In this document: piece by piece, positions 15,764 to 21,890 of the stretch | Layout: each line of letters begins with the position of its first letter | Position numbering within the stretch: the stretch's first letter is position 1 | NCBI GenBank assembly: GCA_963665295.1 | Contig: OY762209.1 | Location: 1,088,001-1,152,000 of the forward strand | Origin: Syntrophorhabdaceae bacterium | Lineage (GTDB): Bacteria; Desulfobacterota; Syntrophorhabdia; Syntrophorhabdales; Syntrophorhabdaceae | Length of the DNA stretch: 64,000 nucleotides | Reading direction: 5' to 3' | Position numbers and translations under genes: made by a program | The notes under the pieces: model-generated | What the model was told of the DNA's origin: nothing | Database searches by the model: none | The model's input: only the letters and a program-made list of their open reading frames with translations

Positions 15764-16109
15764 CACAGGGAGGCGCGGCATTTGCGGCAGCGGAGTTCTT
15801 GTCCTCCTCCTCGTCCTTGCGGCGGCCTTGCTCTTTTCGGGTTGGTCGTCCGGCCATGAGAAGGGAAATGTGAAGGGGTTTCCCCTTCCCGGAGGCGACC
15901 TCGTTTCGGGCGTCCCCTCCGGCGCGCTCCCGCCCGCGACAGGCGGGGCGGAGGAGCCTGCCTGGGAGGCGTTCGAGGCGGCAGAGACAAAAGCGGAACG
16001 GCTTGAAGGGGACCGGGCAGGGGCGCTTCTGGCCTTCAACAAGACGATCGGGATCGTCCTCGCCATGGCGGCGCTTACGTGCATATTGTACCTGCTCCAA
16101 AAGAAGTAG
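15756..16109 (+). CDS. Small hypothetical membrane protein
   Basis: N- and C-terminal hydrophobic helices; overlaps czcA end. Confidence 0.5.
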   Translation: MRDTGRRGICGSGVLVLLLVLAAALLFSGWSSGHEKGNVKGFPLPGGDLVSGVPSGALPPATGGAEEPAWEAFEAAETKAERLEGDRAGALLAFNKTIGIVLAMAALTCILYLLQKK

Positions 16110-16293
16110 GGCATCCGGGCCCCGGGGCCCCATGCCCGCCTCGAACCGGAAGGGGTTCCCATGAGGCGGGGTACGGGCGCTTTGACCGGGAGGTTGAAAG
16201 GATATATTGTAGGATAAGGGTCCCGGTTCTTGCCGCATATCCGGTCTTTTTCCCGGAGGTCCGATGGGGCACAAACTTTATTGAACACAGGAG

Positions 16294-17046
16294 GTGTTTG
16301 TGGACGTGGTAAAGGAAGAATTTCAGGATGGGGTGTACGCTATTACCCTTAACAGGCCCGAAAAACGGAACGCCATGGATTTGGAGCTCCTCAACGCTTT
16401 TTGCCATGCCCTCAGGAACGCCCAGGAAAGGAAGGCCTCTGTCGTGGTTATCCGCGGGTCGGGACACTCTTTTTCCGCCGGCGGCGACCTCGGGGAGGTC
16501 GGGCGGAGTCCCGGACGGATCGATTCCATGGCGGACGCGCTTCACAGGGGCATAAAACTCATACGGAAGATGGACGCCATTGTGATCGCCGTCATCGAAG
16601 GGCTCGCGGCAGGGGCGGGGGTAGGCCTCGCCATGGCCTGTGACCTCTCGGTGGCCGAACGGAAGGCGGTGATGAACGTGGGATACCGGAGGATAGGACT
16701 CACCCCCGAGGCCGGGGGCAGCTTCTTCCTTCCCCGCATTGTAGGTGCGAAGAAATTCAACGAATTCTACCTCTTTTCCCGGAATATCGACATGAAGGAG
16801 GCGGAGGAACGGGGTCTCGTGAATTTTGTGTGGGACGAGGCGGAACTCGAGGGCAACCTCCGGAACATGATTGCGGAACTCACGGCCCTCCCCATGGAGA
16901 CGGTCCCCCAGTTCAAGCACCTCGTCAATACCTCCATCTATGGGGGCCTCGACCTTCACCTCGACAGGGAAAGGTTCTCGGTTTCGCAACTGGGAAACAA
17001 GGAACAGTTCAGGACACGCCTCGACAAGAGGTTGAGAGAGAAGTAG
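16294..17046 (+). CDS. Enoyl-CoA hydratase/isomerase family protein
   Basis: ITLNRPEKRNA, FSAGGDL, AAGAGVGLAMACD, IGLTPE. Confidence 0.9.
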   Translation: MFVDVVKEEFQDGVYAITLNRPEKRNAMDLELLNAFCHALRNAQERKASVVVIRGSGHSFSAGGDLGEVGRSPGRIDSMADALHRGIKLIRKMDAIVIAVIEGLAAGAGVGLAMACDLSVAERKAVMNVGYRRIGLTPEAGGSFFLPRIVGAKKFNEFYLFSRNIDMKEAEERGLVNFVWDEAELEGNLRNMIAELTALPMETVPQFKHLVNTSIYGGLDLHLDRERFSVSQLGNKEQFRTRLDKRLREK

Positions 17047-17129
17047 GAAAGCCGCGCACCCGTCGGACAGGCGTCGGGAAACCCGTCCCGGCGCCCCCGG
17101 AGAGAAAGAAGGATCACCCGCCATTTTGC

Positions 17130-17178
17130 TTGACATCTGCATTAGTTGGAATATACAATAGTTGTGTAATACACACTA
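17130..17178 (+). promoter_or_regulatory. sigma70-like promoter with overlapping MarR-type operator repeats
   Basis: TTGACA 17130-35, 18 nt, TACAAT 17154-59; TAGTTG-initiated imperfect palindromes at 17143 and 17159. Confidence 0.6.
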
Positions 17179-17199
17179 CACGTCCGGGGGATGTGATCT

Positions 17200-17703
17200 A
17201 TGGATCTCACACTGATACGAAATTTCCGCGGGAAACTGAGGCAACTGGAAAGAGAGATCGGCTGGCAATTGAAGGCCGACACGGAATGTTGCGGGGTCAC
17301 CCTCGCCCAGTGCCACATCATCCTGGAGCTGGGTAATACGGGCGGGGCCTCGGTAGTCGACCTTTCCGCCATCCTCGGCCTGGATACGAGCACCCTGAGC
17401 AGGCACATAAACGGGATGGTGAACGCGGGTCTCGCAAACAGGGTCTCGAACCCGAAGGACCGCCGCTATGTCTCCATTACCCTCACGGAGCAGGGCGAGA
17501 AGGTCTACCGTTCCATCGAGGATATATGCAATGAGAAGTACGGAAAGATATTCGAGCGCATAGCCGGGGAAAAACACGAACAGGTCCTGGAAGGATTCAA
17601 CCTGCTCGTTGATGCCATTACGGCCGCGCGAATCGACGAGGAAGCGGGGTGCGGCTGCTCCGGATCGTGTTTCCCGGACAAAGATGTGGAGGTGAGTTCC
17701 TGA
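17200..17703 (+). CDS. Cys-rich MarR-family transcriptional regulator
   Basis: ECCGVTLAQCH, LDTSTLSRHI HTH, DRRYVSITLT wing; C-terminal CGCSGSC. Confidence 0.9.
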   Translation: MDLTLIRNFRGKLRQLEREIGWQLKADTECCGVTLAQCHIILELGNTGGASVVDLSAILGLDTSTLSRHINGMVNAGLANRVSNPKDRRYVSITLTEQGEKVYRSIEDICNEKYGKIFERIAGEKHEQVLEGFNLLVDAITAARIDEEAGCGCSGSCFPDKDVEVSS

Positions 17704-18881
17704 TGTCAACAAAAGAATCGAATACGTGTTCAGGCGGAGAGCCCGTCACCATCGTCGGTCCGGCCTGCTGCGGCGCCCCGGCCCCGGCTCCCAAGGCGTC
17801 GTCCTGCTGCGGCCCGGTGGACCTTGTGTCCATCGACCTGGCGCCGCCGCCGGCGCCCTACCCGGATGGGGCGTACTGGATCAAGGGCTCCATCAAGACC
17901 GCGTCGGGAGAGATCCCGAGGGTCGGAACCTCCCTGGTGTTCCGCGATACCCTTGGCTCCTGGAAGGCCCGCTGGGGCATCAACCGCATGAACTACCGGA
18001 TCCTGCCGGGGCTCTATGGCGTGGGGGACCCGGACGCCGGCGCCCCGGTGTTTGTCACCGCCAATTACAAGATGACCTTTGACCGGTTGAGGAAGGAACT
18101 GACGGGCATGGACGCATGGATCCTCGTCCTCGACACAAAAGGGATCAATGTATGGTGCGCCGCGGGCAAAGGGACCTTCGGCACCGCCGAACTCGTGAGG
18201 AGAATAACGGTTTCGGGGCTTTCCAGGGTAGTGACCCACCGCACCGTAATCCTTCCCCAACTCGGGGCTCCGGGCGTGTCGGCCCACGAGGTGAGAAAAC
18301 TCTCGGGTTTCAACGTGGTCTACGGACCGGTGCGGGCGAGGGACATAAAGGCCTTCCTCCGGGCGGGTATGAAGGCCACGAAGGAAATGAGGACCGTTGA
18401 ATTCGGGTTCGCCGACCGGCTCTGCCTCACCCCCATCGAGCTGGTGGGCATCGTGAAGCCCCTCGCCGCCATGGCGGCGGCCCTTCTCGTCGTCCGCCTG
18501 ACAGGGCTCATGCACATCACCTTTTCCGACCTCTATCCTTTTATCGGCGCGATTCTGATCGGCGCGGTGGTTGCCCCGGCGCTCCTGCCGTGGATACCGG
18601 GGCGGGCCTTTGCCTTCAAGGGATGGCTTACGGGCTTCATCTGGACCGTGGCAATACTTTATCTCAAGGGGACGTCTTTTCAGGTCCGGGGGTTGCTCGA
18701 TGCCCTCGCCCTTCTCCTTCTTCTGCCTGCCATATCGGCCTACCTCGCACTGAATTTTACGGGGGCGTCAACCTACACGTCCCTCTCCGGGGTAAAGAGA
18801 GAGATGCGTTTTGCCGTGCCGGCCATTGTCGTCTCCGCGGCGGCGGGCATCGGGGCGTGGCTGGCCGCCTTCATCGTATAG
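17703..18881 (+). CDS. hgcA: Mercury methylation corrinoid protein HgcA
   Basis: Cap-helix GINVWCAAGKGTF, TANYK, LPQLGAPG, C-terminal TM helices with NFTGASTYTS; followed by hgcB. Confidence 0.97.
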   Translation: MSTKESNTCSGGEPVTIVGPACCGAPAPAPKASSCCGPVDLVSIDLAPPPAPYPDGAYWIKGSIKTASGEIPRVGTSLVFRDTLGSWKARWGINRMNYRILPGLYGVGDPDAGAPVFVTANYKMTFDRLRKELTGMDAWILVLDTKGINVWCAAGKGTFGTAELVRRITVSGLSRVVTHRTVILPQLGAPGVSAHEVRKLSGFNVVYGPVRARDIKAFLRAGMKATKEMRTVEFGFADRLCLTPIELVGIVKPLAAMAAALLVVRLTGLMHITFSDLYPFIGAILIGAVVAPALLPWIPGRAFAFKGWLTGFIWTVAILYLKGTSFQVRGLLDALALLLLLPAISAYLALNFTGASTYTSLSGVKREMRFAVPAIVVSAAAGIGAWLAAFIV

Positions 18882-18902
18882 AAGCTACAGGGAGGATATG
18901 AG

Positions 18903-19193
18903 ATGAAACACCAGTATCTTGAAAACGTGGTTACCCTTCACATGGACGAAGAAAAATGCACGGGCTGCGGGGTATGCCTCACCGTGTGCCCCCACGGGGT
19001 GTTCGCGCCCGCGGGGAAAAAGGTGCGCATCGTGGACAGGAACGCGTGTATGGAATGCGGGGCCTGTGCGGGCAACTGCGCCTTCGAGGCGGTTACCGTC
19101 GATGCGGGCGTGGGATGCGCCTCCGCCCTCATCAAGGCGAGCCTCACGGGCGGTGAGCCCACCTGCGGCTGCAGCGAAGGAGGGTGCTGCTGA
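18903..19193 (+). CDS. hgcB: Mercury methylation ferredoxin HgcB
   Basis: Two CxxCxxCxxxC-type motifs incl. CMECGAC, GVGCA, terminal CC. Confidence 0.97.
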
Positions 19194-19345
19194 CAGGCGG
19201 CCTCCCGATAGCGTAGTCCCCTCCGACCCGCGCCCGGAAAGGGCGTGTTGACGCGGACAGCGCGGTGTGGTAATAAAGAAATCGGCGTTTCTCCGGAAGT
19301 TGTGTGCGGGGGAAACGCGGCCGACGGTGCGTCGCGGGAGGAACA

Positions 19346-20176
19346 ATGGGCAGGCTTTCACACAAGATAGCATTAATCACGGGTGCGGCGAGAGGGATAG
19401 GCAAGGCTACGGCCGAGCGCTTCCACGAGGAAGGCGCGACGGTCATCGTGACGGATATCAATGATGAAGACGGCGCGGCAACGGCCCGGGAGTTGGGCGA
19501 GGCCGCGGAGTACCGCCACCTCGACGTAAGCCGGGAAGAGGACTGGGCCACTACCTTTCAGATGCTCTCGGAGAAGTACGGCCGCCTCGACATCCTGGTC
19601 AACAATGCGGGCATCGACGGATATATCCAGACCAACGGGCCCCACGACCCGGAAAACCTCGATATGGAAAGCTGGCGTCACGTGCATTCGGTGAATGCCG
19701 ATGGCGTGGCCCTGGGCTGCAAGTACGCGATACGGCTCATGAAAAAACACAATTACGGGAGTATCGTGAATATCTCCTCCCGGGCGGGTATCGTGGGTAT
19801 CCCCGGCGCGTCCGCCTATGCGGCGAGCAAGGCTGCCGTGAGAAACCACACCAAGACCGTGGCCCTTTACTGCGGCAGGAACGGGTACAATATCCGATGC
19901 AACTCCATTCATCCCGGCGCCATCCTCACGAAGATGTGGGACCCCATGCTCGGGCAGGGAGCGCGACGGGAACGGATAATGGGGAACATGTGCGCCCAGA
20001 TCCCCTTGGGCCATATGGGCGTCCCCCGCGATGTGGCGAATGCGGCCCTTTATCTTGCCTCCGATGAATCGGCCTACGTGACCGGCATAGAACTGAATAT
20101 CGACGGCGGAATACTCGCAGGGAGCGCGGCCACGCCCACGGGCGCGGTTGAAGGCCCTGACGGCGGCAGAGGCTGA
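19346..20176 (+). CDS. Short-chain dehydrogenase/reductase
   Basis: [17 protein letters not shown]. Confidence 0.92.
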
Positions 20177-20309
20177 CCGGCTCACGCCGTTTCCACTTGA
20201 TTTCATTGACTCCTTCAGGTGCTCCCCAAGGTCGCGCCCCATCCCGCAAGGCCCCACCTCCTCCTGAATATCTTGACAGAAAAAGCTGTTTTGAGTAGAG
20301 TGAAACAAC

Positions 20310-21890
20310 ATGGCTATGGGAAAAATAAGCGTTTTTCTTCTTTCAGTGCTTGTGCTCCTATGCGCGGGGTGTGCCAACAAGGCCCCTGCCATAAGGAATT
20401 CGGCTTCCGGACCGGTGCGAGGTTTCGTGGAGAAGGGCATCGAGGTATACCGGGGCATCCCCTACGCGGAGCCCCCGGTGGGAGAAAACCGCTGGAGAAG
20501 CCCCGCGCCCGTGAAGCCGTGGAAAGACACCCTTCTTTGCACCGAGTACCAATCATCCTGTCCCCAGCCCTCGGTCTCGGAGCTTGAGGGAGGGGGCGAC
20601 GCGGGCAGGACATCGGAGGACTGCCTCTATCTGAATATCTGGTCCCCTGTGAAGAGACCGGCCCAGGGGCTGCCCGTCATGGTCTGGATTCACGGAGGCG
20701 CATTCGCGCTGGGATCAGGCTCCATGGCAGGGTATTCGGGTCTGAACCTTGCGGAAAAGGGCGTGGTGGTGGTGACCATCAACTATCGCCTCGGTCCCTT
20801 CGGCTTCCTCGCCCATCCCGCCCTGAACAGAGAATCCCGTAGCGGCGTCTCGGGCAATTACGGGCTTCAGGACCAGATCGAGGCCTTGAGATGGATACAG
20901 AAGAACATAGCGGTCTTCGGCGGAGACCCCCTCAAGGTGACGGTCTTCGGCGAATCTGCAGGCGCCCTCTCAGTGGGTTACCTCCTTCTTGCCCCTGATG
21001 CGCGCGGTCTTTTCCATCGCGCAATCATGCAGAGCGGTTCGCCCCTGTCTCAGGCCTATGTCATGCCCGGCGCGAATGGAACCTTTGCCCAGGCCCTCGA
21101 TACAGGGAAGAAGCTGTCCCGGAACCTCGGGTGCGACGGGGAAGGGGACGAAGCAGCAGCCATGCGGCGAAAGACGACGGAAGAAGTCATGGCCGCTGCC
21201 GACACAAACCTCAACTTCATCTTTAAGAGTGAAGACGGCCTGCTTTTTGCCCCGGTTTTCGACGGCGTGTTCCTTCCCGTCAGGCCGGAAGACGCCCTCC
21301 GGGAGGGCCGGCTTCATAAGGTACCCGTTATTGTGGGCACCAACAGGGACGAAGCGTCCGTTTTCATAGAGGACCTTACCCCCTCGGTTTACAGGGAGTG
21401 GATCACGAAGATGTTCGGGACCCGCTCAAAGGACATATTCGCCCTGACAGAAGGGAAGTACGAGTCGGATGAGAAGGCGGCGTACGGGAAATTCCTCACG
21501 GTTCTCTGGTTTACCGAGCCCGCGCGCGCTATGGCGAGGTCCATGGCGCGGACCGGGGCGAAGACTTACCTCTACTCTTTCACCCGTGTCCCGGACAATT
21601 CCCTGGTGAGCGAGTTGGGCGCGTTTCACGGCCAGGAGATCGAGTTCGTGTTCGGCAACCTGGGGACCATTCTCGCGACCAGGAAAGACGGGGTCCTGTC
21701 AGGGAAGATGATGGATTACTGGGTGACCTTCGCCGCTACGGGCGACCCCAACGGGCCGGGGTCTTTTAACTGGCCACCCTACGATGAAGAGACGGACCGG
21801 AATATCGAATTCGGCGACACCCTTGGGGTGGGCGTCGGTTTGGACAAGTTTATGTGCGATCTTGTGGAGAAGGTGCGGTGGGGCAGGTAG
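20310..21890 (+). CDS. Carboxylesterase type B, probable lipoprotein
   Basis: Lipobox-like LCAGC, SEDCLYLNI, HGGAF, GESAG, GAFHG. Confidence 0.92.
   Translation: MAMGKISVFLLSVLVLLCAGCANKAPAIRNSASGPVRGFVEKGIEVYRGIPYAEPPVGENRWRSPAPVKPWKDTLLCTEYQSSCPQPSVSELEGGGDAGRTSEDCLYLNIWSPVKRPAQGLPVMVWIHGGAFALGSGSMAGYSGLNLAEKGVVVVTINYRLGPFGFLAHPALNRESRSGVSGNYGLQDQIEALRWIQKNIAVFGGDPLKVTVFGESAGALSVGYLLLAPDARGLFHRAIMQSGSPLSQAYVMPGANGTFAQALDTGKKLSRNLGCDGEGDEAAAMRRKTTEEVMAAADTNLNFIFKSEDGLLFAPVFDGVFLPVRPEDALREGRLHKVPVIVGTNRDEASVFIEDLTPSVYREWITKMFGTRSKDIFALTEGKYESDEKAAYGKFLTVLWFTEPARAMARSMARTGAKTYLYSFTRVPDNSLVSELGAFHGQEIEFVFGNLGTILATRKDGVLSGKMMDYWVTFAATGDPNGPGSFNWPPYDEETDRNIEFGDTLGVGVGLDKFMCDLVEKVRWGR

Follow-up and report, generated by a model that had tools for sequence, protein, structure and literature searches.

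Neither the control of hgcAB expression nor the purpose for which HgcAB evolved is settled. The locus described here, in which a MarR-type gene directly precedes hgcA, lies in a 64,000-nucleotide stretch of a Syntrophorhabdaceae genome (hereafter the window, to whose positions the coordinates refer unless another contig is named). Three genes follow one another on the forward strand, namely marR (17200..17703; ATG at 17200, TGA at 17701-17703), coding for a winged-helix MarR of 167 aa, hgcA (17703..18881), coding for a corrinoid mercury methylase of 392 aa that scores 473 bits on NF040863 (cut-off 275), and the adjoining hgcB (18903..19193), coding for a ferredoxin of 96 aa with 125.5 bits on NF040864 (cut-off 99). 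The translated HgcA cap helix reads NVWCAAGK with the cysteine at C152, in agreement with N(V/I)WCAAGK, which we take to be its signature, and HgcB shows the CxxCxxCxxxC motif twice and ends in a Cys-rich tail with terminal cysteines. The hgcA ATG (17703-17705) shares one base with the marR stop, so that the TGATG overlap read in the initial annotation is indeed present at 17701-17705. Reading the sequence, we also found Shine-Dalgarno-like stretches on the same strand for marR (GGGGGA, 17186..17191) and, within the marR 3′ end, for hgcA (GGAGGTGA, 17688..17695). The stretch is free of differences in DNA contigs of three runs, one of which may be the source of the window. As to the family of the regulator, the MarR profiles gave 49.2 bits for PF12802 (MarR_2; cut-off 27) and 41.2 for PF01047 (cut-off 24.6), as against 24.1 bits for the ArsR/SmtB profile PF01022; the ArsR profile NF033788 gave 26 bits, below its cut-off of 55. 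Two side observations concern the neighbouring sequence. The window HgcA carries a Cys-rich and Pro-rich N-terminal extension (17703-17810; C9, C22-C23, C35-C36), similar to extensions found in its closest relatives and not in the second MarR-linked clade. Also, reading by eye showed TTGACG-17-TAATAA, preceded by a TG, at 19248-19276; it is probably a separate promoter of the downstream short-chain dehydrogenase that marks the end of the operon.

The region in front of marR contains a predicted marR-hgcAB promoter on the forward strand, found by the promoter-match scan, with the -35 hexamer TTGACA at 17130..17135 and, after 18 bases, the -10 hexamer TACAAT at 17154..17159. With 11 of 12 matches, it is the best of the 3 sites in 16000-20500, where shuffled sequence gave a mean of 1.1 sites. 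Over this promoter lie two overlapping, unstranded 19-bp palindromes that both start with TAGTTG and resemble operators. O1 (17143..17161; consensus TAGTTGTA-NNN-TACAACTA) scores 14.8 bits on the operator matrix described below and its right arm is the -10 box itself, while O2 (17159..17177), which follows O1 at a distance of 16 bp and covers the inferred +1, is degenerate and scores 3.7 bits. The two palindromes claimed over the -10 and +1 are both there, the first as a strong site and the second only as a weak one. In the whole genome (5.5 Mb) O1 ranks 3, or 1 when the genome's own background is used, and O2 alone ranks 356, but the 16-bp tandem of the two ranks 1 under both backgrounds (18.4 bits vs 13.0 for the next, and 25.5 vs 14.0). 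A TTGAC box is found 12-13 or 17 bases 5′ of the first palindrome in 19 of the 20 family and spirochaete loci scored. The initial annotation had named a constitutive promoter of hgcA's own as a finding that would speak against its reading; on the forward strand the scan gave no sigma-70-like site of at least 9/12 between 17160 and 20270, the next one being at 20273.

The training set of the operator matrix consisted of 56 upstream regions from metagenomes, made non-redundant, and contained neither the window nor its two closest loci; seeded by hand with the palindrome form, the matrix converged on TAGTTGTATAATACAACTA. A site above 8 bits is present in 48 of the 56 training regions, as against a share of 0.45% among 1120 shuffles. 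Conservation extends to both arms even if the counts are not symmetrised, and 51 of 52 neighbouring positive sites in the training loci are spaced by 16 bp. An operator period of 17 bp was rejected, as the matrix shows 16 bp. Also rejected was a strict IUPAC pattern allowing 2 mismatches, which gave 15 places per strand (control 33) and missed the window's own sites, for which reason the weight matrix was used. As a control for a -10 artefact, the best operator site within 1 kb upstream of the host-family hgcA genes was scored. All 13 of the 13 MarR-headed loci reached 8.6 bits or more, and none of the 28 hgcA loci lacking MarR (2 of them with short upstream sequence) had a site above 4.7 bits; one fragment locus was unscoreable. 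At arsM-linked loci the operator scores 16-22 bits, these loci being inside the training set, and it is also carried by two held-out plasmid loci (L103, 22.3 bits; L104, 17.5 bits). The palindrome core is not exclusive to this group, since 9-10 bits are reached at two outgroup loci of the MarR-GNAT type and 22 bits at a cysteine-free MarR. A palindromic 19-bp site that co-occurs with marR thus overlies marR's own promoter at the sequence level, and the predicted operator is in strict co-occurrence with this MarR, which it tracks. The cysteine-free MarR with the 22-bit operator (L164, genome G801) is of this branch and heads a FAD-linked oxidase-like gene; it is a predicted case of DNA recognition kept and thiol sensing lost.

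The MarR-hgcAB synteny proposed for survey in the initial annotation was seen in genomes and metagenomes, although related genomes in these counts are not independent samples. Among 69 host-family genomes, 18 MarR matches (E up to 1e-15) were found in 17 genomes, and hgcA is directly next in all 18, its in-frame start lying -17 to +13 from the marR stop. In a Leptospirales MAG, hgcA also directly follows the MarR gene. The metagenome scan was seeded with a CCGVT motif and the closest 80 of 250 loci were kept, so hgcA neighbours are favoured in what follows. In these best 80 of 250, hgcA is next in 54 and only an HgcA-like N-terminus is present in 3; one gene separates marR and hgcA in 2, marR comes just after hgcAB in 2, arsM is next in 4 (3 above the NF008823 cut-off, 1 truncated), an ArsN1-like acetyltransferase in 2 (below cut-off), another gene in 6, and 7 were too short. 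At 90% identity, 59 of these best 80 of 250 remain, 35 of them with hgcA next. For the phylum, a sample of 401 genomes gave 20 MarR matches, of which 14 head hgcA. A single-protein genome scan yielded only 2 true relatives among 4 loci, and a search of viral contigs for MarR relatives yielded none. Some variants were met on the way. In two loci (L073, L100), the MarR gene is directly downstream of hgcB with no operator in front. Two further divergent MarR subtypes heading hgcA (L165 and L172 of family f29; L167-L171 of families f60 and f110) have another cysteine spacing and keep operators of 16-25 bits. The gene of a C-GCAxxG-C-C family protein separates marR from hgcA in L098, and in L104 such a gene belongs to an arsenic cluster headed by marR.

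Taken within the host family, where hgcA is present in 45 of the 69 genomes, MarR is one of several solutions: it heads hgcA in 17 genomes, a divergent ArsR in 12 (2 recognised by Pfam, the rest by near-identical sequence), no adjacent regulator was recognised in 14, and 2 were too short. An HgcA tree of 42 rows, leaving out three MarR genomes and one second copy, has one branch (100/99) that parts 22 rows, including all 14 MarR-headed ones, from 20 rows that include all 12 ArsR-headed ones; genera g6, g12 and g13 are each represented in both groups of rows. The separate hgcA clade headed by the divergent ArsR spans three genera (L131, L132, L137, L139-L144, L146, L148, L150); this ArsR is marked by the motif ELCVC and by a CC at the C-terminus. 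In genus g6, three loci (L114, L115, L117) have the order cysE-promoter/operator-marR-hgcA and three (L112, L116, L120) have cysE-hgcA with nothing between, and the loci with and without marR and operator fall inside one HgcA clade. On the simplest reading, hgcAB, regulator and operator appear to move as one cassette, from which the regulator and its operator can be lost jointly. The g6 CysE is serine acetyltransferase-like with hexapeptide repeats, and hgcAB in the three loci with the direct junction may be under cysteine-synthesis transcription. In the window's own genome no wider operator regulon was found, the next-best single sites adjoining unrelated genes, and the predicted regulon appears to be the marR-hgcAB operon alone. 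Translations read by eye place the acr3 and ArsP-like permease units of this genome with their own ArsR genes, and this MarR therefore looks dedicated to hgcAB. In one of these units arsR precedes an acr3-like gene, and the other has the order permease, arsR, small Cys protein, thioredoxin and ccdA-like gene (G000:C1, ~2670900-2672500 and 3696500-3699600). The genome also encodes an ArsM-like methyltransferase (L152, G000:C1:5022802-5023383, reverse strand; 137.9 bits on NF008823, under the cut-off) with one in-frame TGA and a frame open beyond it, possibly a selenoprotein.

What the regulator might sense was approached through its cysteines, which in the translation stand at positions 30, 31, 38, 110, 151, 153 and 157. 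The thiols listed in the initial annotation (CC, a single C and a CGCSGSC tail) are all present, but one of the two single cysteines, 38 and 110, had been omitted. Conservation was counted among the 150 best representative relatives. C30 is kept in 139 of 147 and C31 in 124 of 147, C38 in 137 of 150 and C110 in only 52 of 150; C157 is kept in none of 43 aligned rows. A tail cysteine is present in 120 of the 150, and in 113 it is combined with the CC. As an exact string, the CGCSGSC tail does not qualify as a conserved feature, since the C.C...C arrangement occurs in 1 of the 150 relatives and a CC tail in 77. From these counts it is the CC, C38 and a tail cysteine that matter, and CGCSGSC is a local variant of the CC tail. 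The structure model is that of a standard MarR (pLDDT 86, falling below 50 at tail residues 154-164). Its top fold matches are MarRs of 14-26% identity, including the Zn-sensing AdcR and ZitR at 15-17%, and a PDB search for a structure of the subfamily gave generic MarRs only as best sequence matches (E ~1e-15).

The genes that the relatives head point towards arsenic. A plasmid search gave 52 matches, of which 7 were opened. Relatives on plasmids of Priestia and Paenibacillus head an ArsP-family permease, one of Clostridium felsineum heads a GNAT gene and an arsR-acr3-arsC-arsD-arsA cluster, one of Deinococcus heads arsN2, and one of Paenibacillus heads a frameshifted flavin oxidoreductase and arsM; 2 of the 7 are cysteine-free MarRs, and the Burkholderia-type L106/L109, which lack the cysteines, were used as outgroup. 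In the last-named Paenibacillus case (L107:4508-5600), the oxidoreductase between marR and arsM is arsV-like and is split over two frames. As far as gene neighbourhoods can tell, the arsenic context of these relatives is recurrent. In the MarR tree the window protein falls in a clade of 21 rows (100/98) that is mostly hgcA-linked and has one arsM-linked member; the family f29 hgcA-linked MarRs pair with those of Paenibacillus ars clusters as sister groups (100/99), and other hgcA-linked MarRs are mixed with arsM-linked ones, deep branches being without resolution. From these mixed positions, hgc and ars targets interleave.

The closest described system is AdMarR_ars of Achromobacter deleyi As-55, which represses itself and arsV and is released by As(III) or Sb(III), sensing of which requires C36, C37 and C157 as a three-thiol As(III) site (bioRxiv 10.1101/2021.08.12.456183). 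The two proteins have in common the MarR fold, the autoregulatory layout, and a vicinal CC before helix 2 followed some 120 residues on by a C-terminal cysteine (C36/C37/C157 against C30/C31/C151-153); the window MarR thus has the three cysteines, which align with those of ars-linked proxies, and its relatives head arsV-like, arsP-family, arsN and arsM genes. It differs in its target, as it heads hgcAB and not an arsenic-resistance gene such as arsV, arsP or arsN. Searches for the founder's own sequence did not return it. A Deinococcus-seeded protein search gave 5 close matches, the one that is named being from Deinococcus, and Deinococcus was all that a plasmid search gave; a founder-motif pattern matched 0 of 401 genomes. 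A profile search for founder-like MarRs gave 65 matches in 61 genomes and one proxy (L195) among the 25 loci examined. This proxy lies upstream of ArsN1 (229 bits, cut-off 170), its founder motif being read by eye against the mutagenic primers of the paper, and it has the CC, an equivalent of C38 and tail cysteines. It scores 65 bits on our own profile, as generic MarRs do, and in the tree it sits on a long branch without supported placement and is not grouped with the window MarR. Its locus has a pair of palindromes built in the same way, of 13.2 and 8.5 bits, spaced by 34 bp instead of 16; the main text of the founder's paper maps no operator sequence (bioRxiv 10.1101/2021.08.12.456183). The Paenibacillus-type proxies group with other hgcA-linked MarRs, outside the window's clade. 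By analogy, then, the window MarR likely works like MarR_ars; as the founder was compared through L195, which is only 25% identical to the window MarR (over 117 aa), we have not classed it as a member.

At hgcAB itself the available part of one report describes ArsR2 (DND132_1054) of Pseudodesulfovibrio mercurii ND132, which regulates hgcAB and responds to As and SAH, and for whose four-Cys site the authors raise Zn/Cd/Pb binding (bioRxiv 10.1101/2022.10.17.512643). As described there, it resembles the present case in being a Cys-rich repressor upstream of hgcAB, co-transcribed with it and linked to arsenic, but it is of the ArsR/SmtB family, has another DNA site and another four-Cys arrangement, and responds to SAH too. 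The initial annotation called the arrangement little described, and this holds in part. The consulted part of Zhang et al. 2023 (PMC10349881) already mentions, in one annotation sentence, that two cultured methylators have MarR genes ahead of hgcA, and treats them as unconnected with an ars operon; their gene arrangement is that of the window, a likeness in gene order alone, and that part holds no cysteine analysis, operator or test of these MarRs. In the portions available of bioRxiv 10.1101/2022.10.17.512643, PMC7438021 and PMC11984097 the term MarR is absent, and a literature search that covered few subscription papers found no further study of a MarR at hgcAB, no hgcAB operator and no functional study.

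Here and in many other bacteria this MarR stands before hgcAB, usually with the same palindrome over the promoter, so it is likely to keep the genes repressed until an arsenic-like substance that binds thiols sets it free. In the mechanism we propose, MarR dimers on O1 and O2 would block the promoter and repress marR and hgcAB. A trivalent metalloid, most likely arsenite, antimonite or methylarsenite, would bind C30/C31 and a C-terminal cysteine and bring about release, on which marR, hgcA and hgcB would be transcribed together with hgcA translationally coupled. The parts of this proposal differ in strength. We are highly confident of the predicted co-transcription, binding and autorepression of hgcAB, and the earlier claim that a family other than ArsR exerts autoregulated control over hgcAB has strong support in the synteny and in the operator's strict co-occurrence with MarR. 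A ligand of the As(III)/Sb(III)/MAs(III) kind, with arsenite or methylarsenite as best guess, has in our estimate a slightly better than even chance. Thiol sensing, for which Hg, As or redox state was first suggested, finds support in the conserved cysteines and in relatives that head arsenic genes, and the evidence leans towards As(III), Sb(III) or MAs(III) and not Hg or redox. The whole reading, a MarR autorepressor of marR-hgcAB relieved by a soft thiol-binding metalloid, is somewhat more probable than its negation.

Given that the window clade is mostly hgcA-linked, with one arsM-linked member in 21 rows, the ligand may have shifted from arsenic. The hgcA-linked clade could have the same repressor and operator and be retuned to Hg(II) or methylmercury, which would then switch hgcAB on; we regard this as unlikely. 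The clade is almost wholly hgcA-linked (41 of 43 rows; 18 of 21 in the other tree), the extra C38, so widely kept, is a serine in the ars-linked L103, L107 and L108, and vicinal thiols are strong Hg(II) binders. But the CCGVT motif, C38 and the operator are common to arsM-linked members, and C38 is present in the AdMarR_ars-like L195 too. Induction of hgcAB in ND132 is moreover tied to As and SAH in the available part of bioRxiv 10.1101/2022.10.17.512643. It is improbable, again, that the cysteines switch with redox or sulfur state, by forming disulfides or persulfides, so that hgcAB would follow thiol, sulfide or oxidant status. Other MarRs are released by cysteine oxidation, such as E. coli MarR at C80 (as described in bioRxiv 10.1101/2021.08.12.456183), and the g6 cassette stands behind cysE, to which three g6 genomes attach hgcA directly, yet the non-hgc relatives adjoin arsM, arsN, arsP-family and acr3 genes and not oxidative-stress genes, and the layout of CC plus distal C fits the three-thiol As(III) site of AdMarR_ars. 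Rather improbable is a sensor of another soft metal (Zn, Cu, Cd, Co), or a broad thiol-metal sensor that has no single natural signal. The up to four conserved cysteines (C30, C31, C38 and tail) are similar to the four-Cys site described for ND132 ArsR2 in the available part of its report, and Zn sensors are among the fold matches though at the low identity given above; against it, none of the classified metagenome loci (best 80 of 250) has a metal-efflux or Zn-uptake gene next, and the arsenic context recurs. Finally, that this MarR autoregulates only itself, with hgcAB on a constitutive promoter of its own, is very unlikely, because although hgcAB can do without an adjacent regulator, as in the 14 of 45 hgcA-bearing host-family genomes where none was recognised, the 1-base marR/hgcA overlap, the tight coupling at 18 of 18 host-family loci and the want of a sigma-70-like site of at least 9/12 in 17160-20270 argue against it.

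The metalloid-relieved autorepressor that we favour would place at the head of hgcAB a second repressor family, unrelated to ArsR, with arsenic-linked relatives and a precise predicted operator. It supports a recurring link between arsenic and mercury methylation and a single small protein with a probe of 35 bp is enough to test it; if true, it gives a testable on-switch for the methylmercury genes. Should the Hg-sensing alternative be true instead, this would be the first regulator by which Hg itself turns on hgcAB, and it would depend on cassette interchange within single genera whether a given methylator answers to Hg, answers to As or is constitutive. The operator matrix sorts metagenome hgcA genes by regulator type, and the split between MarR, ArsR and no regulator in one family is a natural comparison set for models of methylation rate.
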